Positions 878-22,413 are shown, counted from the stretch's first letter. The stretch: 32,000 bases of DNA from Paracoccus suum (GCF_003324675.1 NZ_CP030918.1:480001-512000); one strand, 5' to 3'. Translations and numbers: made by a program. The notes: a model not told the origin generated them from the sequence alone.

Positions 878-1470
878 ACATCGTCTTTGACATCGGCAAC
901 GTGCTGCTCCGCTGGGACCTCTGGCCTGCATTCGAGGACGAATTCGCAACGCCAGCCGAGATGACGGCCTATCTGGACGAGATCGGCTTTCACGACTGGA
1001 ACCTGCAGCAGGATCGTGGCCGCAGCTGGGCCGAAGCGCATGACGATCTGCGCGCCCGGCACGGCGCGAGGGCCGAGCCCGCGACGCGCTATGCGGCCCG
1101 CCACGCGCTGACCATCCAGACGCCCATTACTGGCACATGGGCGCTGCTCGACCGACTGGCGCCGCGCCATTCGCTGTTCGCGATCACCAACTGGTCGGCC
1201 GAGACCTGGGCCGACGCGCTGCGCCTGCATCCCCGGCTGGGCCAGGTATTCCGCGACATCGTGATCTCGGGACGTGAGAAACTGGCCAAGCCCGACCCGG
1301 CGATCTTTCGGCTGTTTCTGGACCGCAACGGGTTGGCGGCGGGCGATTGCCTGTTCATCGACGACAATGCGGCCAATGTCGCGGCGGCACGCGAGGTGGG
1401 CATGGACGCGGTGCGGTTCACCGACCCCGAGGCGCTGGAGCGCGATCTGACCGCGCGGGGCCTGCTATGA
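874..1470 (+). CDS. HAD-superfamily phosphatase, subfamily IA (YihX-like, FDxGNV type)
   Basis: 198 aa. HAD motifs are visible: motif I FDIGNVL, motif II ITNWS, motif III KLAKPD, motif IV FIDDNAANV. The ATG overlaps the phnI stop (ATGA at 874-877). Confidence 0.85.
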   Translation: MNIVFDIGNVLLRWDLWPAFEDEFATPAEMTAYLDEIGFHDWNLQQDRGRSWAEAHDDLRARHGARAEPATRYAARHALTIQTPITGTWALLDRLAPRHSLFAITNWSAETWADALRLHPRLGQVFRDIVISGREKLAKPDPAIFRLFLDRNGLAAGDCLFIDDNAANVAAAREVGMDAVRFTDPEALERDLTARGLL

Positions 1471-1531
1471 CCCCTGCCAGACACGCGCCGACCATTCAGC
1501 CCCCCTGCCCCCAATCGCCGGAGCTCCTGTC

Positions 1532-3189: not shown

Positions 3190-3192
3190 GCC

Positions 3193-4152: not shown

Positions 4153-4835
4153 TCCGGATCGAGAATGTCGCCAAGGATTTCACCCTACACAATCAGGGCG
4201 GCACGGTCCTGCGGGTGATGGAGGATGCCAGCCTGACCATCGCCCCGGGGGAATGCGTCGGGCTGATCGGCGCCTCGGGCGCAGGAAAATCGACGCTGAT
4301 GCGCATGGTCTGGGGCAACTACCGCGCCGCCAGCGGCCGCATCATGGTCGGCGATACCGATGTCGCACAGGCCGACCCCCGCGCCATCACCCGGCTGCGG
4401 CGCGGCACGCTCGGCTATGTCAGCCAGTTCCTGCGGGTCGTGCCGCGCGTGCCGACGCTGGACGTCGTGGCCGAGCCCCTCCTGACCCTGGGCACGCCCG
4501 AGCCCGAGGCAAAGGCCCGCGCCGCTGCTATGCTGCAGCGGCTGAACATTCCGCAGCGCCTATGGGGGCTGTCGCCGACGACCTTTTCGGGGGGCGAGCA
4601 GCAGCGGGTCAACATCGCCCGTGGCTTTATCCACCCCTCGCCTGCACTGCTGCTGGACGAGCCGACCGCCAGCCTCGACGCCGCCAACCGCGAGCAGGTG
4701 CTGCAGCTGATCGAGGAGGCCAAGGCGCGCGGCGCGGCTATCCTCGGGATCTTTCACGACGAGGCCGCCCGCGATCGGGTCTGCGACCGTTGCATCGACG
4801 TGGCCGGGTTCGCGCCCAAAGCCGCAGCGGCGTGA
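4149..4835 (+). CDS. phnL: C-P lyase system ATP-binding protein PhnL
   Basis: The ATG at 4149 overlaps the corA-like stop (ATGA). MIRIENVAKDFTLHNQGG..., Walker A GASGAGKST, FSGGEQQRVNIARGF and GIFHDE closely resemble E. coli PhnL. Confidence 0.92.
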   Translation: MIRIENVAKDFTLHNQGGTVLRVMEDASLTIAPGECVGLIGASGAGKSTLMRMVWGNYRAASGRIMVGDTDVAQADPRAITRLRRGTLGYVSQFLRVVPRVPTLDVVAEPLLTLGTPEPEAKARAAAMLQRLNIPQRLWGLSPTTFSGGEQQRVNIARGFIHPSPALLLDEPTASLDAANREQVLQLIEEAKARGAAILGIFHDEAARDRVCDRCIDVAGFAPKAAAA

Positions 4836-5392
4836 TAGCGCCCGTGGATCAGGCAGCCGCCCGGGCCTTTGCGCTCGTCGGGCCGTCGGGCGCGGGTAAG
4901 GATACGCTGCTCGCGGTGGCAAAGGCAGCGCGGCCGGACCTGCTGCTGGCCCGGCGCGTCATTACCCGCCCGAGCGAGGCGGGCGGCGAGGATTTCGAGG
5001 GCGTCAGCAACGCCGAGTTCGACGCCCGGAGGCCCGAGTTCGCCCTGACCTGGGCCGCCCATGGACTGCGCTATGCCATCCCCGCCAGCCTGCGCGCGGC
5101 CCAATGCGCGGGCCGCACCGTCATCTTCAACGGCTCGCGCGGGATGCTGGCCGAGGCGGCGCGCGCCTTTGCCCCGCTGTCAGTGATCGCGCTGGAAGCC
5201 GCGCCCGAGGTGCTGGCCGCCCGGCTGGCTGCGCGCGGACGCGAGGACGCCGCCGATATCCGCGCCCGGCTGGCGCGGGCCGACCTGTCCCTGCCCGAAT
5301 TGCCGGGCGTTCCGGTTCACAGGATCGACAATTCCGGCGACCTGGGCGCGGCGGTGGCGGCGCTGCTGGCCGTTCTGGACCGCGGCCGATGA
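4832..5392 (+). CDS. phnN: ribose 1,5-bisphosphate phosphokinase PhnN
   Basis: The GTG at 4832 overlaps the phnL stop (GTGA). The protein is 186 aa with P-loop GPSGAGKD and PhnN-like WAAHGLRYAIP and NGSR motifs. The long upstream part of ORF 4253.. overlaps phnL and was not used. Confidence 0.88.
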   Translation: MIAPVDQAAARAFALVGPSGAGKDTLLAVAKAARPDLLLARRVITRPSEAGGEDFEGVSNAEFDARRPEFALTWAAHGLRYAIPASLRAAQCAGRTVIFNGSRGMLAEAARAFAPLSVIALEAAPEVLAARLAARGREDAADIRARLARADLSLPELPGVPVHRIDNSGDLGAAVAALLAVLDRGR

Positions 5393-5394
5393 GC

Positions 5395-6075
5395 CTAGGC
5401 GGACAGCGGCAAGCGGCGGATCAGGTGGAAGCGGCCCTCGGCGTCCTCGCCCATCAGGCTCAGCGCCTCGATCGGCTGCGGGTCAGCCAGCAGCGGTGCG
5501 AGGCGAGGCTCGAGCGCGGCGCTGGCGCGTGCGGCAGTGTCCGCGTCCAGATTGCCGGTCAGCGTCATGTGGAACTGGAAATCCTCCATCACATGGGGAT
5601 AGCCCCAGCGTTGCAGGTGATCGCGCTGCCGTGGGCTGAGGCGGTCGGGATTGCGCCGCGCAATTTCGGCCGGGGTCAGGGGCGCGCGAAAGCGGTCAAG
5701 GGCTGCGACCAGCCGCGCCTCCAGCCCCGCCAGCGCCGCGCTGCGGGCGGTCGGGATCAGCGCCAGGAATCCGCCGCCCAGCCGTGCCAGTCGCAGGCCG
5801 CCGGCAAGGCCGAAGGCTGCCTCGGTCGCGCAGAAATTGGCAAAGGCAGCCTCCAGGGCGGCACGCTCGCCCGCCAGCCGGAACGGGGCTTTCATCGTCG
5901 CGTGAAAGCCATAGCGGCGCGGGGTATCGGTCAGCGCTGCCATGTCGAGCCCGTCAATCCGTGGCTGCGGCACCGCGCGGCCGGCAGCCACGTCCCAACC
6001 CAGCCATGCGGCCCCAAAATCGCCCAGCGCGCCGGGCGCCGTGTAATAGACCGCAAATCGTGCCAGACCCTGCAT
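5395..6075 (-). CDS. DUF1045-type 2H phosphoesterase (putative phosphonate-metabolism cyclic phosphodiesterase)
   Basis: I chose the start at Met 6075 (MQGLARFAVYY), which is preceded by GGGAGGA. Two H-x-T motifs (GFHATMKAPF and FQFHMTLTG) mark the 2H superfamily. The gene sits inside the phn cluster. Confidence 0.8.
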   Translation of the reverse strand: MQGLARFAVYYTAPGALGDFGAAWLGWDVAAGRAVPQPRIDGLDMAALTDTPRRYGFHATMKAPFRLAGERAALEAAFANFCATEAAFGLAGGLRLARLGGGFLALIPTARSAALAGLEARLVAALDRFRAPLTPAEIARRNPDRLSPRQRDHLQRWGYPHVMEDFQFHMTLTGNLDADTAARASAALEPRLAPLLADPQPIEALSLMGEDAEGRFHLIRRLPLSA

Positions 6076-6128
6076 GGTCCTCCCCTGGGGTTGCATCAAC
6101 GACATGTCCCTGCGCCAGACGCCCACCG

Positions 6129-7304
6129 ATGACCAGCCAGAACCCGAGTATCCCGATGACCCAAGACGCGATCCTTGCCAATGCCATCCTGATCCTGCCG
6201 GGCGAGACGCGCCGCGGCGGCCTGCGCCTGAAGGACGGCGCGATCGCCGAGATCCTGGACGGCGCAGAAGTACCGGCCGGCGCGCTCGATCTGGACGGCG
6301 ACTACCTCGCACCCGGCCTCGTCGAGTTGCACACCGACAACCTGGAGCAGCATCTGCAGCCGCGTCCCGGCGTGAACTGGCCTCATGCGGCGGCAATCAT
6401 CGCCCATGATGCCGAGTTGGCGGGCGTCGGCATCACCACCGTGTTCGACGCGATGCGCGTGGGGTCTATCAACAGCGGCGACCGGACCACCGATTACGCC
6501 CGCTACGCGCGCCCGCTGGCGACGGAACTGCTGGCAATGCGGGCCACCGGGGCGCTGCGGATCAGCCATTTCCTGCACCTGCGCGCCGAGGTCTGCAGCG
6601 AGACCCTGATCGAGGAACTAGACGAATTCGACGAAGGTGACCGCGTCGGCCTCATCAGCCTGATGGACCATACGCCCGGGCAGCGACAGTTTCGCGACGT
6701 CTCGCAACTGGAAAAATATGTGAAGGGCAAGTTCAACGTCGATGACGCCGGCTTCGCCGCCCATATCGCCCGGCTGCACGAGTTGCGGGCCCGCTTTGGC
6801 GACGATCACGAGGCGGCGGCAGTGGCGGTGGCCGGGCGCCTTGGGGCAGTGCTGGCCAGCCATGACGACACCACTGCCGAGCAGGTCGAGACCTCGGCCC
6901 GCTACGGCATCCGCCTGGCCGAGTTCCCGACCACCATCGAGGCTGCCGCCGCCTGCCACGAGCATGGCATCAAGACCATCATGGGCGCGCCCAACCTGAT
7001 CCGCGGTGCCAGCCACAGCGGTAACGTCGCCGCGCGCGAGTTGGCCGAGGCCGACCTGCTGGACATCATCAGCAGCGATTACGTCCCCTCGGCGCTGCTG
7101 ACCTCGGCCAATGTGCTGGCCGATCTGTGGGACGATCTGCCGCGCGCGATCGCGACCGTTACCGCGACTCCGGCCGCCGCCGCCGGGCTGGCGGATCGCG
7201 GACACATCGCCCCGGGCATGCGTGCCGACCTGATCCGTTTCCGCCGCATGGGCGGCAATGCCGTGCTGCGTGAAACCTGGGTGCAGGGCCGCCGCGTCGC
7301 CTGA
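6129..7304 (+). CDS. phnM: alpha-D-ribose 1-methylphosphonate 5-triphosphate diphosphatase PhnM (amidohydrolase fold)
   Basis: Start at ATG 6129, with an alternative ATG at 6156. It shows the amidohydrolase hallmark (LAPGLVELHTDNLE) and SHDD / GAPNLIRGASHSGN segments like PhnM. The upstream portion of ORF 5784.. is antisense to the DUF1045 gene. Confidence 0.9.
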   Translation: MTSQNPSIPMTQDAILANAILILPGETRRGGLRLKDGAIAEILDGAEVPAGALDLDGDYLAPGLVELHTDNLEQHLQPRPGVNWPHAAAIIAHDAELAGVGITTVFDAMRVGSINSGDRTTDYARYARPLATELLAMRATGALRISHFLHLRAEVCSETLIEELDEFDEGDRVGLISLMDHTPGQRQFRDVSQLEKYVKGKFNVDDAGFAAHIARLHELRARFGDDHEAAAVAVAGRLGAVLASHDDTTAEQVETSARYGIRLAEFPTTIEAAAACHEHGIKTIMGAPNLIRGASHSGNVAARELAEADLLDIISSDYVPSALLTSANVLADLWDDLPRAIATVTATPAAAAGLADRGHIAPGMRADLIRFRRMGGNAVLRETWVQGRRVA

Positions 7305-8683: not shown

Positions 8684-9625
8684 ATGAGCTATTATGGACG
8701 CCTTCCGACGGGCTACAGCATTGGCGGTAGCATTTCGCCCGTTGGCGAGACCGACAGTTATCGGGTGACCTTGGTTCCCGGGCTGACTTATTCCATTACT
8801 GCCCAAGGTTCCTCAAGCGGCAACGGTACGCTGGTCGATCCTCATATGGCGCTGACCACCCTTAGCGGGCGTCAGCTTGCTTATGATGACGACATATCGA
8901 GCAGCAATTACGATGCGCAAATTGTGTGGACAGCGCCCGCAGGTGGTTCTTCTCTCGATTATTTTGTCAACGTCGCGGAGAATGGGGATAATGCGAGTGG
9001 CACATACAAGCTGACCGTCTCTGCCGGATATGCATCTAACTACGCGGACCGCGTGGTTGGGAGTGCCTACGGCGATGCCATTGCCGGTATGGACGGTAAC
9101 GACCAGTTGGCGGGCGGCAACGGGAATGACTACCTGTATGGCCAGAACGGCAACGATTACCTGATGGGCTTGAATGACCACGACTACCTCAGCGGCGCAA
9201 CGGGCAACGATTCACTTCGCGGCGGGACGGGGTCAGATCGCTTGGTCGGCGGAGCCGGAGCGGACCAGTTGGTAGGTGGATCAGGCGCTGACCGCTTCAT
9301 CTTCTACGCAGGAGATTCTGGTCGCTATGATTACGATGCCATTATGGCTGGCGATGGAGGCCTTGCATTCGACGGAATCGGCGCGGCGGCAGGCGATGTC
9401 ATCGACCTTTCGGCGATCGACGCCAACCCTTATGTGGCCGGTAACCAAGCGTTCCAGTTCAGCTCGACCCTGACAACTGGGACGGCCTACCTTACCGAGA
9501 ACACACGCGGCGACACTGTGCTCATGGCCTCGACCGACGCGGATAGCGAACCCGAACTCGTGATCCAGATCCGCGACGGCGCATACACAGCGAGCCAATA
9601 CGCCGCCAACGACTTCATCCTGTAG
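8684..9625 (+). CDS. RTX-type calcium-binding protein with N-terminal PPC-like (pre-peptidase C-terminal) domain and type I secretion-style C-terminus
   Basis: 313 aa with RBS AGAGGAG upstream. The N-terminus (GETDSYRVTLVPGLTYSI...YKLTV) is PPC-like. About 8 GGxGxDxUx nonapeptides follow. The C-terminus DVIDLSAIDAN...GNQAFQF is typical of T1SS substrates, and there is no Sec signal peptide. Confidence 0.85.
   Translation: MSYYGRLPTGYSIGGSISPVGETDSYRVTLVPGLTYSITAQGSSSGNGTLVDPHMALTTLSGRQLAYDDDISSSNYDAQIVWTAPAGGSSLDYFVNVAENGDNASGTYKLTVSAGYASNYADRVVGSAYGDAIAGMDGNDQLAGGNGNDYLYGQNGNDYLMGLNDHDYLSGATGNDSLRGGTGSDRLVGGAGADQLVGGSGADRFIFYAGDSGRYDYDAIMAGDGGLAFDGIGAAAGDVIDLSAIDANPYVAGNQAFQFSSTLTTGTAYLTENTRGDTVLMASTDADSEPELVIQIRDGAYTASQYAANDFIL
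9062..9301 (+). repeat. RTX nonapeptide (GGxGxDxUx) repeat block inside the CDS
   Basis: Consecutive units: GMDGNDQLA GGNGNDYLY GQNGNDYLM GLNDHDYLS GATGNDSLR GGTGSDRLV GGAGADQLV GGSGADRFI. Confidence 0.85.
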
Positions 9626-10957: not shown

Positions 10958-12397
10958 ATGCACCGTTCCGACCCCGACCGCCTTCGCTTTGCTGACCCGT
11001 CCTCCACCGGGCTGCCGCTGTGGGTGGTCGCGCCGGGGGAATGGCCGGCGGACCTGCCCGCCGGCGCGCGCACCCATGCCGAGGCCTGCGGTTTTACGGG
11101 CAAGGCTGGCCAGACCTGCCTTCTGCCCGGCGGGGTCGAGGGAGGCTTGGCCGGGGCCCTGTTTGGCTGGGGCGCGCCCGGCCCGCGCACCGACGCAGCC
11201 CCGCGCGAGCGGTTCCCCCTCGCCCGCGCCGTTGACACTTTGCCGCTGGGAACTACCTGGCGGCTGGCCGCGATCCCGACGGGCGTCGATCAGGGCATCG
11301 CCAGCCTTGGCTGGTTGCTCGGACTCTACCGATTCGACCGCTACACAAAACCCGCCGAAGGCCCGGCGCGCGCCGCCCCCATCTGTCCGGAGGGGGTGGA
11401 TCGCGCCCGGATCGAAGCGCTCGCCGCCGGTGAGGCGCTGAGCCGCGACCTGATCAACACTCCGGCTTCGGACCTGGGCCCGGCGGAGTTGGAGGCCGCC
11501 GCCCGCACGCTGGCCGAGCGCTGTGGCGCGACGGTCGAGGTGACCACGGGCGGCGATCTGCTGGCCGCCAACCTGCCCATGATCCACGCCGTGGGCCGCG
11601 CCGCTGCCAGCGACCGGGCGCCGCGCCTGATCGACCTGCGCTTTCCCGGCTCAGGCCCGCGCGTGACGCTGGTTGGCAAGGGCGTCTGCTTTGACACCGG
11701 CGGCCTTGATATCAAGCCGCCTTCGGCCATGGGCCTGATGAAAAAAGACATGGGCGGCGCGGCGGCCGTCCTCGGTCTGGCGCAGATGCTGGCCGATCTG
11801 GGCCTGACCAAGGACATCCAACTGCGCGTGCTGATCCCTGCGGTCGAGAACGCCATTGCCGGCGATGCGATGCGGCCCGGCGATATCCTGACCAGTCGCA
11901 AGGGCCTGACCGTCGAGGTGAACAATACCGACGCCGAGGGGCGGCTTGTGCTGGCCGATGCCCTCGCGCTCGCGGCAGAGGAGGCGCCGGACTGGCTGAT
12001 CTCGATGGCAACGCTGACCGGCGCGGCACGGGTGGCGCTGGGGCCCGACCTGCCGCCGATGTTCTGTGACGATGACGATGCAGCGGCGGTGCTGCTCGCC
12101 GCGGGACGCGCCGCCGCCGACCCGATCTGGCGCATGCCCTTCTGGGAGCCTTACGAGGCCATGATCGAGCCCGGCATCGCCGATCTGGACAACGCCCCTT
12201 CGGGCGGCTTTGCCGGCGCGATCACCGCCGCGCTGTTCCTGCGCCGCTTTACCGAGGGTGCCGCCCGCTACGCCCATTTCGACATCTATGGCTGGCAGCC
12301 AGCCTCGGCCCCCGGCCGCCCGAAGGGGGGCGTCCAGCAGGGCGCCCGGGCGATCCTGACCGCATTGCCAGAGCTGCTTGCGGGATCGCGCGGATGA
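10958..12397 (+). CDS. M17-family leucyl aminopeptidase-like protein
   Basis: 479 aa. It carries the M17 signature NTDAEGRLVLADAL plus VGKGVCFDTGG and the MKKDMGGAA metal-site region. Confidence 0.9.
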   Translation: MHRSDPDRLRFADPSSTGLPLWVVAPGEWPADLPAGARTHAEACGFTGKAGQTCLLPGGVEGGLAGALFGWGAPGPRTDAAPRERFPLARAVDTLPLGTTWRLAAIPTGVDQGIASLGWLLGLYRFDRYTKPAEGPARAAPICPEGVDRARIEALAAGEALSRDLINTPASDLGPAELEAAARTLAERCGATVEVTTGGDLLAANLPMIHAVGRAAASDRAPRLIDLRFPGSGPRVTLVGKGVCFDTGGLDIKPPSAMGLMKKDMGGAAAVLGLAQMLADLGLTKDIQLRVLIPAVENAIAGDAMRPGDILTSRKGLTVEVNNTDAEGRLVLADALALAAEEAPDWLISMATLTGAARVALGPDLPPMFCDDDDAAAVLLAAGRAAADPIWRMPFWEPYEAMIEPGIADLDNAPSGGFAGAITAALFLRRFTEGAARYAHFDIYGWQPASAPGRPKGGVQQGARAILTALPELLAGSRG

Positions 12398-13215
12398 GCG
12401 ACCGGCGCACCACCCCCGCAACCGACCGAATTGCGCTGGAGCGCCTGCGCGGAGCGGTGGACCGCCCCGCCTACACAGCCGGGCGCCCGGCCACGGTCAT
12501 AGCGCCCGTTGTCGACCTTTGCGCCGCGCCCGACGGCCCGCGCGAGCGGCAACTGCTGTTCGGCGCGCCCGTGACCGCAGTTGATACCGAGGGCGCCTGG
12601 ACCTTTGTCGAGGCGCGGGACGATGGCTATTGCGGCTGGCTGAACTCGGGCACACTGGCCGAGGGCTTGCCGCCCGCAACCCATCGCGTGGCCGTTCCCG
12701 CAACGCATGTTTACCACCACCCCGACATCAAGAATGGCGAGGTAATGTCGCTGTCACTTGGCGCGCGTCTGGCCGTGACCGGGACCGAGGGGCGCTTCGC
12801 CTGCCTCTCCGGCGGCGGGTTCGTCCCGTTGGTGCATCTGTCGGACCAACCGGCCGGCGATCCGGTTGAGGTCGCGGAACTGCTGCTCGGCACGCCATAT
12901 CTGTGGGGCGGCAACAGCCGCTCGGGCATCGATTGCTCGGGGTTGGCGCAGACTGCGCTGCGCGCTTGCGGACGCAACTGCCCCGGCGACAGCGACCAAC
13001 AATTCGCCGCCATGAGCCACGAGGTGCCGCTGGCCGAAATTCAGCGCGGCGATCTGTTGTTCTGGCGCGGTCATGTGGCCATGGCAACGGGACCTGACCG
13101 GATGATCCATGCCAACGGCCACACGATGTCGGTCGCCTACGAAGGCATCACCGCAGCGCTGACCCGGATCGAAAGCGCAGGGGACGGCGCGTTCCTGGGC
13201 GTGCGCCGTCCCTGA
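12394..13215 (+). CDS. NlpC/P60 (C40) peptidase with N-terminal SH3-like region, no signal peptide
   Basis: The ATG overlaps the M17 stop (ATGA at 12394-12397). Catalytic region: GTPYLWGGNSRSGIDCSGL ... GHVAM ... IHAN. Confidence 0.85.
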   Translation: MSDRRTTPATDRIALERLRGAVDRPAYTAGRPATVIAPVVDLCAAPDGPRERQLLFGAPVTAVDTEGAWTFVEARDDGYCGWLNSGTLAEGLPPATHRVAVPATHVYHHPDIKNGEVMSLSLGARLAVTGTEGRFACLSGGGFVPLVHLSDQPAGDPVEVAELLLGTPYLWGGNSRSGIDCSGLAQTALRACGRNCPGDSDQQFAAMSHEVPLAEIQRGDLLFWRGHVAMATGPDRMIHANGHTMSVAYEGITAALTRIESAGDGAFLGVRRP

Positions 13216-13216
13216 G

Positions 13217-13236
13217 GGGCACGTTTTCAGGTGCCC
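13217..13236. terminator. Possible bidirectional hairpin between convergent genes
   Basis: Inverted repeat gggcac / gtgccc (13217-13222 / 13231-13236) with an 8-nt loop gttttcag that contains the stop codon of the giant gene. The stem is short and there is no clear U-tract. Confidence 0.25.
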
Positions 13237-16200
13237 ACGCTGGTAAGGACAGAGATTTCGCGCTCGATCATCAGATCGGCGTCAGATTGCGCCCGCACTC
13301 GCCGGGCCGCGGCCTCCGACAGGCGGAGGAACAAATCCGGTTCGTGATACAAGCGCTCAATAGCGTCGGCGAGCGCCTGAGCATCATCAGGCGGGACGAG
13401 AATTCCGCAGGTTTCGTCCACGAACTCTGGAACTGCGGCGACAGCGGTAGTGACCGGCACCAGGCCTGACGCCATCGCCTCGTCGCGCGACACGCCATGA
13501 GTATCGGTGCGCGTGGGGACCAGAAATATGCCGGCCTCACGGTGAAGGCCCGCGATCTCGGTATGCGACAGAAAGCCTTTCTGGATTTCGACATTATCCA
13601 TGCCGCGCAGCGGGGCCACCGTCTCCTCCAACAGCGGGCCGTCACCTGCGATGCGGAAGTGCATCTGGTCGAACCAAGGCTTGGCTGACAGGATCCGAAT
13701 CGCGGCGACCGCCAGATCATTGGCGTATACGCTGGATGCAAACGGCCGAAGCAGCAGTACTTTTAGCCTGTCTTCGGTTTTTTTGGGCTGGTAGGCAAAT
13801 ATCCCGGTGTCGATCGGATTGTGAATGACCTCGATTTGGCCAGGCACAAAGCTGATCCCCAGATCCTCAGCCGCCGTATCCGCAAGCTGCTGCGAGACGA
13901 ACACCAGCTTCAGGTTCGGATGTTGCGGCCTCAGAACGCCGTGCCAGAAGGCCATACGCGCATCACTGGCGCGCTGTGCCGCCTCACGCTCTGCTGGCGT
14001 GGTGTAAAGGAATGCGCGCCGCGTCCAAGGCTGAATGTCTACGCCGTGGCACCAGACGACCACCCTCACCCGATCTAGATGCGGTCGCAGGATGTCCCAC
14101 ACTTCCGGCGTCAGGAAATGAACTGCCACGGTGTCATAACCGCCCTCGGCGAGCATCTTGTCGAGCGTCACACGGTCAGCCGTCATCACGTCGGTGTTTT
14201 CGAACTCGGTGAAGGTCGGCGCGACGCTCTCTCGGAAGCGCAATACGGAGGGGCGGAGCCCGAGGGCGGCATAGCGGCGCACCCGACTGTGCAGGAAGGC
14301 GTTACGATAGAGGTCCGAATAGGCCGGGTATTGGTTTGTGACGATCAACACCCGCCCCCGGTCCAACAGGGTGCTCGGCGTCAACTGCCGATGGGTCAGG
14401 TCGAGCGACTTGATCTCGCACATACCGCTGCCGAGGACGCGCAGGCCGAGTCGAACCGAGGCGGTGCCGGCGGGGGGCTCGGCGGTCTCGTTGCGCAGCG
14501 GATGGATCATCGCGTGGCCAAGGCGGCTGCCCTTGGCGTCGAGCCAAATCATTACGAACGAAATCGAGAGGCCCGGGCTCACGTCGACATGACAACGCAA
14601 CACTCCATTCTCGAGAACCTCGGACGGGCGGAGCGATGTCGTGCTGTAGATGTAGGCATGCTTGCCGTCGGCCAATTCGGAGGCGACCTCGAACGAGATC
14701 GGTGAGACGACGATCTGAACACCCGGTGCGCTTTGGCCGCGGAACAGCCGGGCCAAATCACGGTTGTCGAGACGGCGTGCCGTCGCCGGCATGTCTGCCG
14801 GCTTGATGGACTCGGCCCTCGAGAGGATCTCGGGCAGGGGCAGGCCGGGGTCGATGCCGCGCAGGTCGTCGACCACGCTGGCGATGGTGGTGCGGTCCGC
14901 GACCTCATGGCAGTAGTTGAACGGATCGACCGACAGGACGCGATCGGCTCGCCAGTCACCGGTATCGATTCCGTCAAGCAGCCCCGCGCGGTCCTGTTCG
15001 TTCAGCAATGCGCCACGGATGATCCCCCGCCGGCGGGAAATGCCCGCGACCGGGATATAGGCCGCGGCCGGGTCCATCAACGTGCCATCCCCCGTGGGGT
15101 AGGCAGCCTTGCCGATCACATCCGCCCCGCTGTAGCGAGTCGCGAGCACCAGATCGCGCAGGTAGTTCGGCCCGTAATAGTCCTTGGCGCTGAAGCAAGC
15201 CAGCCAGCCAGCCGCCAGTTCTTCAGTCAGGTCGGGCGGGGCTTCCCCCTCGGATAGCAGGCGCACGCGCGGATCGTGGTCCGCCGCCCTGAACCCTTCC
15301 GGGGCAATCAGCAGCAGCCTGGCGTCGCGGTGGGTCTGGGCGGTGAACGCGGCGAGCAGGTGGCGTGCAGATTCCTCGTCCGGCGCGTGGGCGATGACCG
15401 TCACGGCTGGCAGGTCCGCCTGCGGCGCGCGATCCGGCAGCGCCTTTGAGACGACATAGGCCAACCGGTCGGCCGAGGTATGCTGCGACATGATCTTGCG
15501 CAAACCTGCAAGGCGCAGCCGGTCGGCATGGCCGGGCTGGTCCGCGACCTTTTCAAATCGGCGCGTAACCTCGCCGTGATCGTCCGACGAGATCACCAGA
15601 TCCCCGAACATCATGCGCAGCCCGCGCGAGAAATTGCTGATCGTCACGGTACCCGAGGCGAGCAGTTCATAGACGCGCCGGGCAAACATGCTCTGCGATT
15701 GCTTCACCGAATTCAGGTTGATCGCGTAGCGATAGCCCTTGTAAGCGACGTCGATCCGGCTCGCCGGCAGCGTGCCGACGATGAACGTCCTGAAGGACTC
15801 CGGAAAGGCGTAGTTCGGGTCGTCCCTGCCCCAGTTGCGGTCAAAGATGTCGAGCGGTCGCAGCAGCGGCAGGCCGGCGGTGAAGTTTTCCAGATCGCGG
15901 GTCCGCTCGGGGTAGCGGGTATAATACGCGCCGGCGAAGTTGATCGCATCGCGGCGGGCGAACAGTTCGATCGGATTGTGCACGCGCGGCTGGCAGGCGA
16001 AGGGCAGCAGCCAGACCCGGTCGTGGCGCAGCGCCTGCCGGTAGAGGTGGATGCAGTCGATATCGGTCGTAAAGACGTGGTCGAACAGCTTGGCGGTGCT
16101 CAGAAAAGAGGTGTAGTGGACCGGATCTTCCTTGTTCCAGAAGACCGTCGGCACGCCATTCTTGCGGCACCATCCCACCAGGTCATGCAGTTCCTGGCTG

Positions 16201-18998
16201 CGGTGGCCAATCTTGCGGTCCCAGCTGTCGTTCTTGCCGCGCCAAGCAGATTCAACGAACAGAAGGTCCGGCTTGAAGCCCTCGATCTCGGACTGCCAGT
16301 TGCCGGCGGTCAGGCCGAGCAGATCGGCCTCGGGCGCAAAGCAGGTGTAGGTGAAATCGTCCATGATTGCGGCGACACGCAGGTCCTTGCGCGGAGCAAG
16401 CAGAATGTCGGCAACTCTCGCCGCGCCCTCGCGCGCGGCGAGGGGCTCCGGCGGGGCGTAACCATCACGAAAGATCGGCGCCGTGATGGCGGGTGCGGCG
16501 GCGGCCTTGGCCTGCACCTCGGTCGAGGATGCGGCCTGCGGCGCCTCCCCGGGTGGGGGCCCCGACGTGGGCGCGGCGACCGGCCCGGGCCTCGCCGGAG
16601 GTGCCGCTTCGACGGGCGGGGGCAAAAGACCCGGCGGCGGCGAGTCGAGATGGGTGCGGAACACCCGCGCCATCCGCACCGGAATGGCGGCAAAGCCGCG
16701 CACCGAGGCGGCGCCATCGCGCAGCACCTCGCCGGCGCGATAGGTGCGGCTGTTGGCCATGCTGACCAGTCGACCGCGCAGCAGCGAGTTCTGCCCCTGA
16801 GCTTCACGCAGCCGCCGCTCGGTCATGGTCAGCGCCGCCCGCAGTTGCGGGACGGTCTGGTCGTAACGACCTGTCAGTTCGCGGTACTTGGTATTTGCGG
16901 CGTCAAGTTTCTGGCGCGCGGTCTCGGCCTCAATCTGCCGTTTTTGGCTCTCGCTGCGGACACCAACCAGCTGGCTCTGGAGTTCGGCGATCTCCCGCTG
17001 ATCAGCCTCGCGCCGGGTTTTGGCGGCAGCCATATCCATCGCATGGATCTGGGCTTTGGCCTTGGCGTCACGCAAGTCGGCCTGGATGCGGTCGTAGTCC
17101 GCAGTCAGCGATTTGATATCGGCGAGTGCGCCTGACAGCGCGGCCGTCTTGCTCTCGACCGCGCTGCGAATCGCCGCCGTGTCCTTGCGCGCGGCCTGCA
17201 ACTGTTCACTCACGTTGCGGTATTTGGTGTTCGCTTCGCTCAGGGCCTTTTTGAGGCGCGCAAGTTCCAATCCGCTGCGATACGATTCAACCGCGAGGCG
17301 CAAGCCCGCTTGTTCCAACCGGTCTTTCTGGTCTGCCAACGCCGACGGGAGGAAAAGATGGGTCGGCGTCGCGTTGAACGTATCCCAGTACTTATAGCCC
17401 AAAGGGTGCAGCAGACGCAGGACGGCACGAAAGCTGGCCTCGTTTTCACACTCGACATACAGTATCGGCTGGTCGCGCTTGATTAGATCCTCGGCTCCGG
17501 CGAGAACCGCGCTTTCCATTCCCTCCACGTCGATCTTGATGGCGCGGACTGGTCCCGGAAACGACTGCGAGTCAAGCGTCACAACGTCAATTTCACCCGC
17601 GCCCAACTCGAGGTGTTGGCCACCCAGATTTTCTGGACGCTCGACGCCGAACTTTGCCCGACCAGCGCTGGCGCCGACCCCGAATTTGCGGATCGACAGC
17701 CGCTCGCCGAGATCATTTTCGGCGATGGACTGTTCGATCGCCTCAACAAGGTGGGGGTTGGGCTCGAAGGCAATGACGCGGCAATCTGCGACGACGGCCA
17801 GATACATCGCGTGATTACCGATATTCGCGCCGATATCGAGGACCAGATCGCCTGGCGATAGGCGCGACGCCATGTCGCGCAGCATTTCGCGCTCGTAAGG
17901 TTCGCGCGTCTGGGCAATGCCCTTCTGGATGTAGTCCGTGGCAGAATCCGGCAGGACCATCCGATAACTGCGGTCCCCTTCGATGACCTCGAACGGACCG
18001 TCGGGGGCGGCAGGCGTGGCCTCGTCAGAGGTGACGACCGGCTCGGCGCGCGTTGGCTGATGCGCCTTTACTTCGTCAACAGGGCTGCGCGATTCGGCCA
18101 TCAAATCTTCCGTATGGGTCTGTTTCAAGCCTTGCGACTTGAGGGCGATGGGTTGAGCCCCCGGCTGAATGGTATCTCCCGGCGCAGCTGGCATGTGAAG
18201 GGCGGCCGAAGGGCGGTGCCGGGAGGAAGGATCATTCTGACCAGCGATCTCGCCCGCCTGAATGATCTCTCGTAGCTGGGAAATCGCGGTATCGTAAATG
18301 CTTTGCTGATAGTGAAACGGTTCGAGGCCCCATTTGTGCCCATGATCGGCCAACAGAGAGTCTGTTTGATATGTCAACCATCGTGTTTGCGGCAGCGCCT
18401 CAGCCAGGGCGTCATACATTTTTGCAAGTAAAAGATTCTGACGTTTCGCCACGGCCGCGGGATATTCGTCGATTGGAGCGCCCGATTGATCTGTCAGCGC
18501 CCAGAATACGCGATTCACCACCAGCCGTTCCTGCCAGCCTCGCGCCTTGATCAGGGTAGCAAAGTGGATCAGGCCTTCTCGCCACCGATCGTAACGCTCT
18601 GGATCGCTATTCACCAAGCGACGACCCGCCATAGAACCAGCAGCGGAATCAGCCCCAGATAAGAATTCGGGGGAAACTGTGACCGCGTCACCGCTCGCCC
18701 GTAACAAGATATCAAATCGCTCGTCGATGAAATCCAGTAAGATCAGATCGAAATCGTCATCCCGCAAGGCGGCGAGCAGGCTCTTGTCCATGTCCCGCAA
18801 TACCATGCGGCGCTGAAACGGGCTGTCGATGCGGGCCAGGAGCGCATGGTCCACTAGCGGATGCGCGTTAAGCACCGCAAAACTGCTGCGGGCATAATAG
18901 TCGCTAATCACGAAATCCGGACTCGGGCTGAGCGCAAAGATGTCGCGGCTGGCGCAACTTCCGATGATCAGCACTCGGGTCTGGCGGCCTTCGTTCAT
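13227..18998 (-). CDS. Giant multidomain glycan-assembly protein: unknown N-domain + FkbM-family methyltransferase + long coiled coil + Pro/Ala linker + CgeB-like glycosyltransferase + GT-A-like module + beta-rich module + GT4 glycosyltransferase
   Basis: A single uninterrupted frame. The Met at 18998 forms an ATGA overlap with the wecC stop; the longest ORF starts at 19013. Motifs: LDIGANIGNH / AFEPNP / IKIDVEGME (FkbM); INLNSVKQSQSMFARRVYELLASG (CgeB-like GT-B); GVSRDEAMASGLVPV (GT4). Confidence 0.9.
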   Translation of the reverse strand: MNEGRQTRVLIIGSCASRDIFALSPSPDFVISDYYARSSFAVLNAHPLVDHALLARIDSPFQRRMVLRDMDKSLLAALRDDDFDLILLDFIDERFDILLRASGDAVTVSPEFLSGADSAAGSMAGRRLVNSDPERYDRWREGLIHFATLIKARGWQERLVVNRVFWALTDQSGAPIDEYPAAVAKRQNLLLAKMYDALAEALPQTRWLTYQTDSLLADHGHKWGLEPFHYQQSIYDTAISQLREIIQAGEIAGQNDPSSRHRPSAALHMPAAPGDTIQPGAQPIALKSQGLKQTHTEDLMAESRSPVDEVKAHQPTRAEPVVTSDEATPAAPDGPFEVIEGDRSYRMVLPDSATDYIQKGIAQTREPYEREMLRDMASRLSPGDLVLDIGANIGNHAMYLAVVADCRVIAFEPNPHLVEAIEQSIAENDLGERLSIRKFGVGASAGRAKFGVERPENLGGQHLELGAGEIDVVTLDSQSFPGPVRAIKIDVEGMESAVLAGAEDLIKRDQPILYVECENEASFRAVLRLLHPLGYKYWDTFNATPTHLFLPSALADQKDRLEQAGLRLAVESYRSGLELARLKKALSEANTKYRNVSEQLQAARKDTAAIRSAVESKTAALSGALADIKSLTADYDRIQADLRDAKAKAQIHAMDMAAAKTRREADQREIAELQSQLVGVRSESQKRQIEAETARQKLDAANTKYRELTGRYDQTVPQLRAALTMTERRLREAQGQNSLLRGRLVSMANSRTYRAGEVLRDGAASVRGFAAIPVRMARVFRTHLDSPPPGLLPPPVEAAPPARPGPVAAPTSGPPPGEAPQAASSTEVQAKAAAAPAITAPIFRDGYAPPEPLAAREGAARVADILLAPRKDLRVAAIMDDFTYTCFAPEADLLGLTAGNWQSEIEGFKPDLLFVESAWRGKNDSWDRKIGHRSQELHDLVGWCRKNGVPTVFWNKEDPVHYTSFLSTAKLFDHVFTTDIDCIHLYRQALRHDRVWLLPFACQPRVHNPIELFARRDAINFAGAYYTRYPERTRDLENFTAGLPLLRPLDIFDRNWGRDDPNYAFPESFRTFIVGTLPASRIDVAYKGYRYAINLNSVKQSQSMFARRVYELLASGTVTISNFSRGLRMMFGDLVISSDDHGEVTRRFEKVADQPGHADRLRLAGLRKIMSQHTSADRLAYVVSKALPDRAPQADLPAVTVIAHAPDEESARHLLAAFTAQTHRDARLLLIAPEGFRAADHDPRVRLLSEGEAPPDLTEELAAGWLACFSAKDYYGPNYLRDLVLATRYSGADVIGKAAYPTGDGTLMDPAAAYIPVAGISRRRGIIRGALLNEQDRAGLLDGIDTGDWRADRVLSVDPFNYCHEVADRTTIASVVDDLRGIDPGLPLPEILSRAESIKPADMPATARRLDNRDLARLFRGQSAPGVQIVVSPISFEVASELADGKHAYIYSTTSLRPSEVLENGVLRCHVDVSPGLSISFVMIWLDAKGSRLGHAMIHPLRNETAEPPAGTASVRLGLRVLGSGMCEIKSLDLTHRQLTPSTLLDRGRVLIVTNQYPAYSDLYRNAFLHSRVRRYAALGLRPSVLRFRESVAPTFTEFENTDVMTADRVTLDKMLAEGGYDTVAVHFLTPEVWDILRPHLDRVRVVVWCHGVDIQPWTRRAFLYTTPAEREAAQRASDARMAFWHGVLRPQHPNLKLVFVSQQLADTAAEDLGISFVPGQIEVIHNPIDTGIFAYQPKKTEDRLKVLLLRPFASSVYANDLAVAAIRILSAKPWFDQMHFRIAGDGPLLEETVAPLRGMDNVEIQKGFLSHTEIAGLHREAGIFLVPTRTDTHGVSRDEAMASGLVPVTTAVAAVPEFVDETCGILVPPDDAQALADAIERLYHEPDLFLRLSEAAARRVRAQSDADLMIEREISVLTSVGT

Positions 18999-20275
18999 GC
19001 GGCTTTGGTCCATGCACCGCGGGTGTCGATGACACGGGTTCCCGGACGCAGCTTTGGCGCCGCGGACTTGAACTGGCTGTGATCGACCAGCAGGACGGCG
19101 ATGTCAGCCTTGGCCAAGGCGCTTTCCGTGTCAGCCAGGCGTGCGGCTTGCAGGCCCTCGGGCAGCGCGTCCGTGTGGGGTTCAACCACCATCAGGCCGG
19201 GGAGCTGGGCCGACAGCGTGCGGGCGATGGCGAGGGCGGGGCTTTCGCGCAGATCGTCGATATCGGCCTTGAAAGCCAGGCCGAAGCAGGCGACCTGCGG
19301 CTGGCGGCCGGGGTTGGCGTCGGTCCAGTCGGCGATCGCGGCGTGGACGCGCGCGATGACCCAGCCGGGCTTGCTGTCATTGACCTCGCGCGCGGTGCGG
19401 ATCAGGCGTGCCTCGGCAGGGACCTGGCTTACGATGAACCACGGGTCGACCGCGATGCAATGTCCCCCGACACCCGGGCCGGGTTGGAGGATGTTGACGC
19501 GTGGATGACGGTTCGCGAGGCGGATAAGTTCCCAGACGTCGATGCCGAGGCGGTCGCAGATCAGCGACAATTCGTTGGCAAAGGCAATGTTGACATCGCG
19601 AAAGCTGTTCTCGGTCAGCTTGGCGAGTTCTGCCGTGCGGCAGTCGGTCTCGATGCACTCACCCTCGACGGCCAGCTCGTAGAGCGCGCGCGCCCGGGTA
19701 GCGCAAGCCGCGGTCATGCCGCCGATGATCCGGTCGTTGCTGACCAACTCCTCCAGCGCGCGGCCGGGCAGGATGCGTTCCGGGCAATGGGCGATGCGGA
19801 TGTCCGACTGCTCGCCATGGGTGGCGGGAAAGGTCAGGTCGGGCCGCTCGGCCGCCAGCCAGTCCGCCATCTGCTCGGTCGCGCCGACTGGGCTGGTCGA
19901 TTCGAGGATCACCAGATCCCCCGCTTTCAGGACCGGCGCAATGGCCCGCGCGGCGCTTTCGATATAGCGCAGATCGGGGTCATGTGCGCTCTCACCCTCG
20001 CGGAACGGGGTTGGCACGGCGATGAGGAATGCGTCGGCCGCCTCAGGGGTGGTCGTCGCGCGCAAATGACCCGAAGCGACGACCTCCTGCAGCGCCTCCT
20101 CCAGTCCCGGCTCGACGATATGGGTCTGCCCGGCATTGATCTTGTCGACCGCCGCGGCATTGACGTCAAAGCCGATCATGCGCACCCCGCGCCGGGCAAA
20201 GACGACCGCCGTCGGCAACCCGATATAGCCCAGCCCGACCATGCAGACGGTGCCGAAAGAGGTGCTGTCGCTCAT
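18995..20275 (-). CDS. wecC: UDP-N-acetyl-D-mannosamine dehydrogenase
   Basis: 426 aa and near-colinear with E. coli WecC as I remember it ([11 protein letters not shown]..., [56 protein letters not shown]). The ATG overlaps the wecB stop (ATGA). Confidence 0.93.
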
Positions 20276-21405
20276 GCTAAGAGGCCTTTGAAATCGAGGA
20301 GGGCGGTCAGGATGCGGTCGACGGCCTTGCCGTCGCCGTAGGGGTTATGGGCGAAGCTCATGGCATCGTAAGCGGCCTGATCGGTCATCAACCGCGAGAC
20401 TGCGCCCACGATCGCACCGCGATCCGTGCCGACGAGCTCGACCGTGCCGGCATCGATTGCCTCGGGGCGTTCGGTCCTGTCGCGCATCACCAGCACGGGC
20501 TTGCCCAGAGAGGGGGCCTCTTCCTGGATGCCGCCAGAGTCGGTCAGAATGATATGCGCCCGGCGCATCAGCCAGACGAAGGGCAGATAATCCAGCGGCT
20601 CGATCAGGTGGACATTGCCCAGCCCACTGAGGATGCGCTGCACGGGCTCGCGCACATTCGGGTTAAGATGCATCGGATAGACGATTTGCAGCGTGGGAAA
20701 GCGCGCTGCGAGGTCGGCCAGCGCCTGGCAGATCGATTCAAAACCGCCACCAAAGCTTTCCCGGCGGTGGCCGGTCACCAGCAGCACCGGGCTGCCCTGG
20801 GGCAGAAAGTCGAACTGCGCCGCCAGTTCGGCCGTGAGGGTCGGGTCGGCATCAATGCGCGCCACGACCTCCAGCAACGCATCGATCACGGTGTTGCCGG
20901 TGACAGTGATGCGGTCCGCGGCCACTCCCTCGGCCAGCAGGCAGTCGCGCGACTTGGCCGAAGGGGCGAAGTGCAGCGTTCCCATAGCGCCGACGATCTT
21001 GCGATTACCCTCCTCGGGCCAAGGTGAATAGATATTTCCGGTCCGCAGGCCGGCCTCGACATGACCCACCGGGACGCGCCCGTAATAGGCGGCGAGGGTG
21101 CTTGCGAGGGTGGTCGCCGTGTCGCCATGAACCAGAACGATGTCTGGCGCCTCGGCCTCGATCACCGGCTTGAGGCCCATCAGGATGGCGGCGGTCACGC
21201 CGTTCAGGTCCTGCCCGCTACGCATGACGTTCAGATCGTGATCGGGGACGATCCCGAAAAGGGCGGTCACCTGATCGAGCATCTCGCGGTGCTGGGCAGT
21301 GACACAGACGCGGCTCTCAAAGCGCGGATCGCGGGCCAAGCCCAGGACCAGCGGCGCCATCTTGATCGCCTCTGGCCGGGTTCCGAAGACGGAAAGGACT
21401 TTCAT
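20272..21405 (-). CDS. wecB: UDP-N-acetylglucosamine 2-epimerase (non-hydrolysing)
   Basis: I chose the start at Met 21405 ([19 protein letters not shown]). [34 protein letters not shown] and [21 protein letters not shown] match WecB. Confidence 0.93.
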
Positions 21406-21504
21406 CGTAATATCCCGGTTCAATCTCGCCGGGTCTATATATGGTGACAGAAGGCATGGCCAGCCGGGCAAATCACGGCCTGCGCCTCTCCGCCGCCGGC
21501 CGCC

Positions 21505-22413
21505 TTACCCCGCCCCGTCGCCCAGAACGAACACCCGCTCCGGCTGGACTTCGCCGCCCTGATATCGGCCGATGCAGAGCGGCCGGCCGCCCCGTGCCAC
21601 GAGCACCAGATCGCCCCAGGCGGCAGTTCCCAGGACCTGGCCGGGGTTGCCATTTGCGATCCTCAGAGCGCCGGTTTCGGTCGCCTGAAGAAGGGGCAGA
21701 TCGCCCAGCGCGGCTTGCAGGGGCAGGATGCGGGCGGCGAGGATGGTGGGGTCGCCGCCGTCGAGTTCGGCTGGGGTCACGGCTTGGTCCAAGGTGAACG
21801 GTCCGGACCAGACGCGGCGCAGCCAGGCGGTATGGCCAAGGCAGCCCAGCGCGCGGCCCAGATCGCGGGCGATGGCGCGGACATAGCCGCCCTTGCCGCA
21901 GACCATGTGTAGCAACGCGCCGTCGGTATCCGTGTCCGCCAAGTCGAGTTGCGCTACGTGCAGCGGCCGCGCGCCGAGGTCGGGCCGCAACCCCTCGCGC
22001 GCGAGATCATAGGCCCGTTCGCCCGCGACCTTGACTGCGGAAAAAGCCGGCGGCACTTGCATGATGTCGCCGCGAAATGCCGGCAGGGCGGCCTCGATCT
22101 CGGACGCCGTCGGTCGCAAATCGCTGGTCTGCAGCACCGTGCCCGAGGCATCGTCGGTATCCGTCTCCGCCCCCCAGGCGACGCGGAAATCATAGGCCTT
22201 CAGCGCCGCCTCGACAAACGGGACGGTCTTGGTCGCCTCGCCCAGGGCGACCGCGAGGATGCCGGTCGCATCCGGGTCCAGCGTGCCGGCATGGCCGGCC
22301 TTTTTCGCGTCCAGCAACCAGCGCACGCGGCCGACCACGGAGGTCGAGGTCATGCCGGCGGGTTTGTCGACCACCAGCCAGCCATGAATGTCGCGGCCCT
22401 TCTTGCGTGCCAT
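21505..22413 (-). CDS. truB: tRNA pseudouridine(55) synthase
   Basis: Start at Met 22413 ([23 protein letters not shown]). The catalytic-Asp motif is [12 protein letters not shown]. Confidence 0.93.

Follow-up and report, generated by a model that had tools for sequence, protein, structure and literature searches.

The window analysed here, a 32,000-nucleotide stretch from Paracoccus suum (GCF_003324675.1, NZ_CP030918.1:480001-512000) numbered from its first letter, contains an 8.3-kb cassette of three genes (13216..21504) whose products are implicated in the synthesis of a polysaccharide containing N-acetylmannosaminuronic acid (ManNAcA). All three genes lie on the minus strand: wecB (20272..21408) codes for a non-hydrolysing UDP-N-acetylglucosamine (UDP-GlcNAc) 2-epimerase, wecC (18995..20275) for a UDP-N-acetylmannosamine (UDP-ManNAc) dehydrogenase, and a giant gene (13227..18998) for a soluble protein of 1923 amino acids, listed by NCBI as 'FkbM family methyltransferase' and predicted here to be a polymerase-terminator. 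The cassette is bounded by the stop codons of two core genes. These are truB (21505..22413, minus strand; PF01509/PF16198), which lies upstream on the same strand and encodes a 302-residue protein 100% identical to P0121, and an NlpC/P60 peptidase gene (12394..13215, plus strand; PF00877 and SH3_16), which is convergent with the cassette.

A prior reading of this DNA from the sequence alone (the sequence-only reading) had described ATGA overlaps between wecB and wecC and between wecC and the giant gene, and both are present: on the minus strand the wecB stop TGA and the wecC start ATG share the tetranucleotide at 20275-20272, and the wecC stop and giant-gene start share that at 18998-18995. 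The NCBI annotation starts the giant protein at the Met of this second ATGA, giving the 1923-residue version (P0001, 100% identity, Paracoccus suum) to which the residue numbers below refer. An alternative start is possible at an in-frame ATG 15 nucleotides upstream (19013); as the annotated start is the ATGA Met, the resulting 1928-residue open reading frame (ORF), whose numbering runs five higher, has no exact database match. The close junction between wecC and the polymerase gene is not a chance feature: in 19 related loci wecC immediately precedes the polymerase gene, with no more than 42 nucleotides between the two, the ATGA overlap recurs in three of our loci (L004, L010 and L012), and a 4-nucleotide overlap is also found in a fourth (L088). 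Judged from the overlaps, it is plausible that the three genes are translationally coupled and form one transcript. The true start of wecB lies at 21408 (ATG), separated by 96 nucleotides (21409..21504, minus strand) from the truB stop at 21505; this intervening region matches no Rfam family, and it might hold a promoter or a 5' untranslated region, or be traversed by read-through from truB.

The first two genes are assigned with high scores over nearly the full length of their models, namely WecB by TIGR00236 (490 bits against a cutoff of 210; model positions 1-363 of 366) and PF02350 (395 bits), and WecC by NF008286 (664 bits against a cutoff of 459; model positions 2-419 of 420) and three UDPG_MGDP_dh domains. 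The conversion of UDP-GlcNAc to UDP-ManNAcA by WecB and WecC is established biochemistry for both families and, as shown at the family level, the P. suum pair is predicted to carry it out.

The N-terminal half of the giant protein begins with a DUF6270 domain (18309..18968, residues ~11-230; PF19786, 212 bits), followed by an FkbM-type S-adenosylmethionine-dependent methyltransferase domain, the predicted chain-capping terminator (17388..17843, residues ~336-551; TIGR01444, 84 bits against a cutoff of 37.7; PF05050, 53 bits). The latter is modelled by AlphaFold2 (AF2) with block means of the predicted local distance difference test (pLDDT) mostly above 90, and its top Foldseek match is the FkbM structure 2py6. 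It is followed by a coiled coil, the predicted molecular ruler (16755..17324, residues 559-748), that appears in the AF2 model as a single unbroken helix of 190 residues, with a heptad periodicity above that of 99.6% of shuffled sequences (0.4% of shuffles reach it). The coil gives weak SMC and TPR_MLP1_2 matches and is among the least conserved stretches in comparison with P0002, the nearest known relative. A Pro/Ala-rich linker, presumably flexible by its composition (16449..16646, residues ~785-850; 20 Pro and 22 Ala in residues 751-850), leads into the polymerase core.

The core (residues ~857-1923) is modelled as four modules with a mean pLDDT of 89 and a predicted template modelling score of 0.85. 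The first is an α/β glycosyltransferase (GT) module resembling Glyco_trans_1_2 and DUF3880 (15441..16382; PF13524, 56.7 bits), which AF2 predicts with high confidence over residues 17-330 of the C-terminal half and which contains the invariant motifs FWNKEDP and ESAWRG; of all parts of the family, this module shows the tightest linkage to wecB/wecC. The second, a divergent GT2-like module of the GT-A type (14871..15404), has a single invariant Asp, within 'DYYGPNYL'. It was recognized by hhalign (probability 97%, E 1.1e-10) against residues 418-621 of a 638-residue Sinisalibacter protein in which Pfam detects Glyco_trans_1_2 and Glycos_transf_2; the mid-module sequences themselves have no Pfam match at E ≤ 10. 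The third (14391..14774) shows β strands throughout residues ~570-680 of the C-terminal half, and this sandwich-like all-β domain is a possible carbohydrate-binding module. The fourth is a GT4 module with the retaining GT-B fold (13242..14351; PF13692, 68 bits; PF00534, 56 bits; PF13439, 31 bits, all above cutoffs), whose Foldseek matches include the retaining GT4 enzyme 7qsg, MshA, BshA, PimA and glycogen synthase, with E-values down to 1e-17. Its invariant D1832 and E1840 lie eight residues apart, and we read this pair as a probable D-x7-E variant of the GT4 EX7E motif. Foldseek on the entire C-half model returned GT4 matches only, modules 1 and 2 and the β domain having no separate match; sequence profile searches of PDB gave a best E of 0.054 for DUF6270, no match for GT module 1 and nothing meaningful for the mid module. 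No transmembrane (TM) segment is predicted over the 1923 residues (maximum 19-residue Kyte-Doolittle mean 1.44).

To place the cassette in its genomic setting, the neighbourhoods of relatives were retrieved via TruB orthologues and three Paracoccus genomes were compared: the closest relative available (L085, TruB 80% identical), P. albus (L086) and Paracoccus sp. S-4012 (L087). In L085 and S-4012 the order is hydrolase, truB, and then convergent NlpC/P60, M17, a small hypothetical gene, carbonic anhydrase, RTX protein and asd, with truB and NlpC/P60 directly adjacent and overlapping at their 3' ends; in P. albus a single small acetyltransferase gene separates the two. Neither wecB nor wecC nor the giant gene is present between truB and NlpC/P60 in any of the three, and in a nucleotide alignment of the junctions homology stops at the truB stop and restarts at the NlpC/P60 stop. 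As the cassette is absent from all three relatives and homology breaks at both stops, the 8.3 kb at 13216-21504 is a lineage-specific insertion rather than part of the core synteny. The sequence-only reading had suspected an insertion or rearrangement here, and the insertion is borne out; one of its arguments, the separation of truB from infB-rbfA and rpsO-pnp, falls away, since in the cassette-free relatives truB is just as far removed from rbfA/infB and has the same hydrolase and kynureninase genes upstream.

The composition of the cassette supports a foreign, possibly mosaic origin: G+C content at third codon positions (GC3) is 0.63-0.83, against 0.80-0.90 in neighbouring core genes, with its minimum in the DUF6270 and FkbM segments. 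Of the features typical of genomic islands, absence from the same site in relatives is seen; the window contains no scars of a mobile element in the form of flanking direct or inverted repeats, target duplication, tRNA, integrase or transposase. The related Sinisalibacter locus has transposases and an integrase-type gene on its flanks. Two further observations concern the same region of the genus. The gene for the protein with RTX/HemolysinCabind repeats (8684-9625, plus strand) is low in GC for this genome (GC 0.58, GC3 0.66); it is syntenic in L085 and S-4012, so that its odd composition stems from its repeats or from an older acquisition and not from this insertion. P. albus (L086 14958-17801) and S-4012 (L087 274-3111) contain a compact trio of a major facilitator superfamily (MFS) transporter, a GT4 enzyme and a sialyltransferase-like Glyco_transf_29 protein, whose position shifts relative to the truB/carbonic anhydrase region and which the P. 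suum window lacks. This trio could be a further example of a small, mobile glycan module.

Homologues of the polymerase core form a family of 2393 clusters at 50% identity (E ≤ 1e-30); among the matches listed (n=150) all have E ≤ 2.5e-252 and nearly all span the full core. The family is represented in Alpha-, Beta-, Gamma- and Epsilonproteobacteria, Myxococcota, Planctomycetota, Firmicutes, Actinobacteria and one archaeon. We examined the features within 10 kb of the polymerase gene in 31 loci that have the full core and for which 18 kb of sequence or more was available. Homologues of wecB and/or wecC are present in 29 of these, from many phyla, which supports the earlier proposal that the giant protein would build a ManNAcA polymer. 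An ABC ATPase is encoded in 20, in 17 together with an adjacent polytopic permease, and KpsC, KpsE or KpsD homologues in 10; a DUF6270 gene occurs in 14 and a heparinase II/III-like gene in 10.

Kps genes surround homologues in L006, L007, L008, L010, L011, L027, L034, L078, L089, L094, L095 and on an E. coli IncF plasmid. For example, Pfam matches in the Cupriavidus locus (L007) give the order ABC ATPase, KpsE-like, KpsD-like, wecB, wecC, polymerase; that of Brucella haematophila (L008) has a 740-residue Capsule_synth (KpsC-like) protein followed by KpsM and KpsT; and in the kps loci L089 and L095 (Telluria) one end is occupied by KpsC and KpsS, the former locus also having KpsM and KpsT and the latter a KpsD-like gene at its edge. 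Similar kps/ABC-2 company is kept in Acinetobacter (L094) and on the E. coli plasmid (pCE1537-B). A Cellulomonas locus contains an ABC-2 pair and an LCP ligase, and by tblastn further Actinobacteria have the same combination and most Firmicutes loci an ABC-2 pair; in these Gram-positive loci the ABC-2 pair with an LCP ligase is the signature of a wall-linked polymer. From these associations the core family appears to be the polymerase of ABC-transporter-dependent pathways and to be specifically tied to ManNAcA supply. About a third of the homologous loci, including those of other Rhodobacterales (Sinisalibacter, Cribrihabitans and a Leisingera plasmid), have no transporter within 10 kb.

Several of these loci have features of their own. 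A stand-alone Glyco_trans_1_2 gene of 330-350 residues lies just upstream of kpsC-kpsS in L089 (18937-19971), L094 (11674-12672) and L095 (14370-15419), and a small gene of this kind adjoins kpsE and wecB on the E. coli plasmid (L092 14007-14999). Its product could act as a 'transition transferase' that joins the anchor, a lipid bearing 3-deoxy-D-manno-octulosonic acid (Kdo), to the first repeat; a separate gene of this kind is absent from the P. suum window. Heparinase II/III-like or alginate-lyase-like genes lie beside the polymerase in about a third of the loci (L001 15849-18791 and 21314-22993; L003 16892-19105; L091 23269-25446; L088 10258-12477; L094 7104-8849), with none in the P. suum window. 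They might encode lyases, or C5-epimerases that act on the polymer and turn ManNAcA into L-GulNAcA. The polymerase core is present as two tandem paralogues (~1100-1150 and 1465-1679 residues) in Cribrihabitans (L035 9710-18207) and on the Leisingera plasmid (L091 14954-23294), the latter pair adjoining glmS/glmU/glmM and an asparagine-synthase-like gene whose product could amidate a uronic acid. L089, a complete kps locus with the polymerase, has a gene for a PF00953 (WecA/MraY-family) transferase just upstream of kpsM (1247-2353); this is unexpected for a Kdo-lipid-anchored capsule, and some members may use a different primer.

Across the family the core occurs alone (~1050-1200 residues) or with an N-terminal extension of ~330-900 residues. 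Where this extension is not of the FkbM type, an unrelated class I methyltransferase (Methyltransf_11/23/25) takes its place in seven of the ten cases tested, followed in two of the seven (L017 and L051) by coiled-coil-type Pfam matches. That a methyltransferase is kept at the N-terminus despite the swap of family is the strongest argument for its being functional. P0002, which is 77% identical to the P. suum protein, begins at the FkbM domain and lacks DUF6270; together with the low GC3 of the segment this points to a recent fusion of DUF6270 to the P. suum N-terminus. Elsewhere DUF6270, with more than 150 homologues, is usually encoded by a separate gene of 230-400 residues that adjoins the polymerase gene or lies a few genes downstream of it; a fusion with a heparinase II/III-like protein is found in Stutzerimonas. 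The domain thus appears to be a dedicated companion of the polymerase, and its invariant Arg, Asp, His, Asn and Trp suggest that it is an enzyme. It was left unresolved by AF2, as only four sequences in the alignment carry it. An SGNH-like fold was considered for DUF6270 and dropped, because the conserved S, N and H motifs are misplaced for that fold.

The gene content of the window was assessed by Pfam scans of plausible ORFs over the 32 kb and by a search for polytopic membrane ORFs. On the NlpC/P60 side there are matches to phnI/J/K/M, HAD, CorA, asd, the RTX protein, carbonic anhydrase, M17 and NlpC/P60, and on the truB side to truB, an α/β hydrolase, kynureninase, rlmH, rsfS, MscS, leuCD, DUF308, EEP and radical SAM. 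The only ORFs with at least four predicted TM segments are those of MscS and DUF308, and the only ABC-ATPase-like sequences are those of the phn genes for carbon-phosphorus (C-P) lyase. The phn cluster itself (83-7304) is broken up, with a HAD hydrolase gene separating phnI from phnJ and a gene for a CorA-type Mg2+ transporter after phnK. At ~4070-4830 there is a weak ABC-ATPase-like match that could represent phnL, in a frame other than that of the scanned ORF 4253-5392.

These scans returned no Wzx/Wzy, no WecA/WbaP initiator and no primer-forming enzyme in the window. Neither the further glycosyltransferases, PF00953 protein and polytopic flippase or polymerase ORFs of an enterobacterial common antigen cluster, in which wecB/wecC go with wecA, wecG (ManNAcA transferase), wzxE, wzyE and wzzE, nor the kpsM/kpsT, kpsE/kpsD and kpsC/kpsS genes of a group 2/3 (Kps) locus accompany the cassette there. 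The description of an isolated locus, without exporter, flippase or initiating transferase, thus holds over the 32 kb. As a puzzle, the missing genes are to be divided. ABC-transporter-dependent routes make no use of Wzx/Wzy, and in Kps-type loci the lipid acceptor comes from KpsS/KpsC. Given the type of the enzyme, the absence of Wzx/Wzy is expected, and that of WecA/WbaP is explicable in a Kps-type route; a genuine gap remains only for the ABC-2 exporter.

Taken together, we consider it probable that the cassette is a horizontally acquired, P. suum-specific polysaccharide 'region 2' of an ABC-transporter-dependent pathway whose exporter and acceptor genes are unlinked, with the giant protein as its polymerase-terminator. 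WecB and WecC would supply UDP-ManNAcA to the giant protein, a cytoplasmic or peripheral enzyme that would combine polymerase and terminator in one polypeptide. At the inner membrane face its core would processively build a ManNAcA-containing heteropolymer on a lipid-linked acceptor, taking the second sugar from the housekeeping UDP-sugar pool. ManNAcA would be added by one module, probably the Glyco_trans_1_2/GT2-like pair, as this pair is the most widely linked to wecB/wecC in the family, and the retaining GT4 module would add an α-linked second sugar. The Pro-rich linker and the coil of ~190 residues, ~28 nm long as a straight helix, would hold FkbM and DUF6270 away from the polymerase. When the growing chain reaches the distal end of the coil, FkbM would methylate its non-reducing end and growth would stop, so that capping would occur at a set chain length with the coil as ruler, by analogy with WbdD, WbbB and Klebsiella O7 ORF6; DUF6270 might help in capping or add another modification. 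Export and acceptor would be provided by genes elsewhere in the genome, either KpsMT-KpsED with KpsS/KpsC or Wzm/Wzt with a polyprenol-linked primer.

Several observations weigh against this proposal. The ruler and capping roles are drawn from architecture, as a search against PDB chains showed no sequence homology of the protein to a characterised terminator. The KpsT-type ATPases beside homologues are short (215-221 residues), which leaves no room for a cap-reading carbohydrate-binding module and puts the purpose of a cap in Kps contexts in doubt. The DxD motif is degenerate in the GT2-like module, which may lack activity, and the position of DUF6270 varies between the N-terminus in P. suum and a separate downstream gene elsewhere. 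The glycan pathway is incomplete within the 32 kb, which hold no ABC-2 permease/ATPase pair, Kps protein or outer-membrane export protein, and neither the truB-wecB gap nor the stretch past the giant gene gave a sigma-70-like promoter or an intrinsic terminator in a consensus scan.

An unlikely alternative, which fits all the data and is indistinguishable here from the proposal above, differs from it in the acceptor: the cassette would extend a resident ABC-exported glycan, be it O-antigen or capsule, at its non-reducing end by a domain that contains ManNAcA. There is a precedent in Klebsiella pneumoniae, where an unlinked, laterally acquired O1 locus for a polymerase and a terminator acts on the O2a chain (PMC10629545), and the P. 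suum cassette is minimal, without the small extra Glyco_trans_1_2 gene found with kpsC/kpsS in full loci. Rhodobacterales loci are generally without linked transporters, and a second isolated wecB-wecC-GT trio is present in the genus, on plasmid p599725 of Paracoccus seriniphilus. Most homologous loci, however, have the cassette within a complete dedicated kps or wzm/wzt locus, suggesting that it makes the main polymer, and a resident glycan pathway of P. suum is neither visible in the window nor known to us. The P. seriniphilus trio (L093 12858-19462; NZ_CP067130.1 312740-319344) sits between copper-uptake and Hint-domain/Nqr genes; the annotation within 16 kb includes no transporter, and its 1163-residue GT has Glyco_trans_1_2 and the mid unit, followed by a canonical GT2 where P. 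suum has GT4.

It is less likely still that the cassette was acquired recently without compatible acceptor and export genes, and is now silent, or yields a cytoplasmic product only, on its way to loss. The absence of partner genes from the 32 kb, a GC3 still unlike that of the host, the lack of a recognisable promoter and the absence of the cassette from the three relatives examined would all agree with such an orphan. Nevertheless, all three ORFs are intact, a frame of 1923 codons having a calculated probability of ~1e-24 of staying open by chance without selection at this base composition; the giant protein retains every residue that is invariant across 12 diverse homologues; and the translational-coupling overlaps are preserved. 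Moreover, as the third of homologous loci that also lack a linked transporter include plasmid-borne ones, unlinked need not mean nonfunctional.

Cytoplasmic protein glycosylation, in which the giant enzyme would decorate a separately secreted protein such as flagellin or the RTX-repeat calcium-binding protein encoded 3.6 kb away, would account for the missing exporter and initiator and is nonetheless very improbable. The layout of a multi-GT polymerase with a coiled-coil terminator is that of lipid-linked polymers (PMC11231755), and the consistent genomic partners of the family are ABC-2 exporters, Kps proteins or LCP ligases, with no target protein recurring among them. Glycosylation of the RTX protein in particular was rejected, because its gene belongs to the core synteny: it is conserved in the cassette-free L085 and S-4012 and was not co-inherited with the cassette. 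A synthase-type enzyme, which would translocate the chain through the membrane as well as polymerise it, and for which a single very large multi-GT protein with no transporter nearby might speak, is virtually excluded and was rejected, since no segment reaches the TM threshold, AF2 models soluble domains only, and the homologues adjoin dedicated ABC-2 exporters.

If the cassette is an unlinked region 2 of the kind proposed, it predicts for P. suum an acidic, ManNAcA-containing surface polymer that is missing from close relatives and is likely to be relevant to phage and immune recognition and to surface properties. More broadly, there emerges an abundant enzyme family, without a characterised or structurally solved member, that ties UDP-ManNAcA supply to a conserved core of three GTs and repeatedly has an N-terminal methyltransferase on a coiled coil, in Kps loci and elsewhere. 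We suggest, tentatively, that it might be a very large group of ManNAcA-polymer polymerases that carry chain-length control in the O-antigen style, by a 'methyl cap plus coiled-coil ruler', into the pathways of Kps capsules and Gram-positive wall polymers, that the minimal trio might be a self-contained plug-in for any recipient ABC-2 exporter, and that DUF6270 might be a new enzymatic partner, either in termination or in modifying the polymer. The principle is already known; the GT core family has not been characterised, nor have the terminator end made up of FkbM and DUF6270, the fusion of DUF6270 to the N-terminus and the minimal, detached three-gene form. For glycoengineering, the cassette might offer a compact single-enzyme path to ManNAcA polymers.

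Among known systems, one that is close in gene content is region 2 of those group 2/3 Kps loci that encode a UDP-GlcNAc 2-epimerase and a UDP-ManNAc dehydrogenase, such as E. coli K7, Haemophilus influenzae d/e, Neisseria meningitidis I/K and Mannheimia haemolytica A1 and, among the loci examined here, the E. coli plasmid pCE1537-B. There wecB and wecC likewise stand beside polymerising GTs, and the product is an acidic ManNAcA-containing polymer exported by KpsMT-KpsED on a lipid anchor made by KpsS/KpsC. Homologues of the P. suum polymerase occupy exactly such loci, whereas around the P. suum cassette itself the window contains no kps gene. To our knowledge, no characterised Kps system has a methyltransferase and coil fused to its polymerase.

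In architecture the giant protein resembles WbbB of K. pneumoniae O12 and Raoultella terrigena, in which a Kdo terminator and a coil precede two GTs, and K. pneumoniae O7 ORF6, which combines a methyltransferase, a cryptic 223-residue kinase, a carbohydrate-binding module, a coil and two GTs (PMC11231755). The polymerase-terminator model drawn from these two and WbdD, in which chain length follows from the length of the coil, is established by experiment. All are single soluble polypeptides with an N-terminal terminator (predicted in P. suum), a long coil and C-terminal GTs, and as in O7 ORF6 the predicted terminator comprises a methyltransferase and an extra domain of ~220 residues. WbbB and O7 ORF6 belong to ABC-transporter-dependent assembly, as is proposed for the giant protein. 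Of the features of this type, the giant protein has an extended coil, at least two GT modules C-terminal to it and a distal methyltransferase domain predicted to cap; a linked Wzm/Wzt with a cap-reading carbohydrate-binding module is not found in the 32-kb window. It differs in that the extra domain is DUF6270, N-terminal to an FkbM-type methyltransferase, rather than the O7 kinase; in its GTs, which are Glyco_trans_1_2-like, divergent GT2-like and GT4, with UDP-ManNAcA as the predicted donor; and in that its relatives are often found in Kps capsule loci rather than O-antigen loci. No homology to WbbB or WbdD was detected, a phmmer search of the whole protein against all PDB chains giving only GT4-type matches to the C-terminal module. 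The giant protein would accordingly be an analogue of WbbB and O7 ORF6 by architecture and not a homologue. The WbdD/WbdA systems of E. coli O8/O9a and Klebsiella O5/O3 share with it a multi-GT polymerase and a methyltransferase held on a coil, which in WbdD places a methyl or phospho-methyl cap and in P. suum is predicted to cap (PMC11231755). They differ in that WbdD and WbdA are separate proteins, WbdD having a C-terminal membrane-binding helix, that the product is a mannan, and that the carbohydrate-binding module of Wzt reads the cap.

The detached state of the cassette recalls wbbY-wbbZ of Klebsiella O1, a small, laterally acquired polymerase/terminator pair that is unlinked to the exporter and works with a resident ABC pathway (PMC10629545). 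There a dual-GT polymerase is likewise combined with a terminating modifier, in that case a separate pyruvyltransferase; the locus has no precursor genes, the product is a galactan, and the proteins are unrelated and belong to other GT families. For the product, a parallel is provided by the teichuronic acid of Micrococcus luteus, [-4-β-D-ManNAcA-(1→6)-α-D-Glc-1-]n (PMC3005890), which shows the ManNAcA/hexose alternation expected from an inverting GT and a retaining GT4 and differs in being the wall-linked polymer of a Gram-positive bacterium. Actinobacterial homologues of the polymerase sit with wecB/wecC, an ABC-2 exporter and an LCP ligase, and we infer that the M. luteus polymer might be tied to the same family. 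Finally, many group 3 kps clusters of E. coli encode putative methyltransferases with coiled coils of varying length (PMC13171606), and a 2025 review (PMC12220298) considers chain-length control of ABC-transporter-dependent capsules still open and ascribes it to a 'yet-to-be-identified factor', for which the family described here is a candidate.

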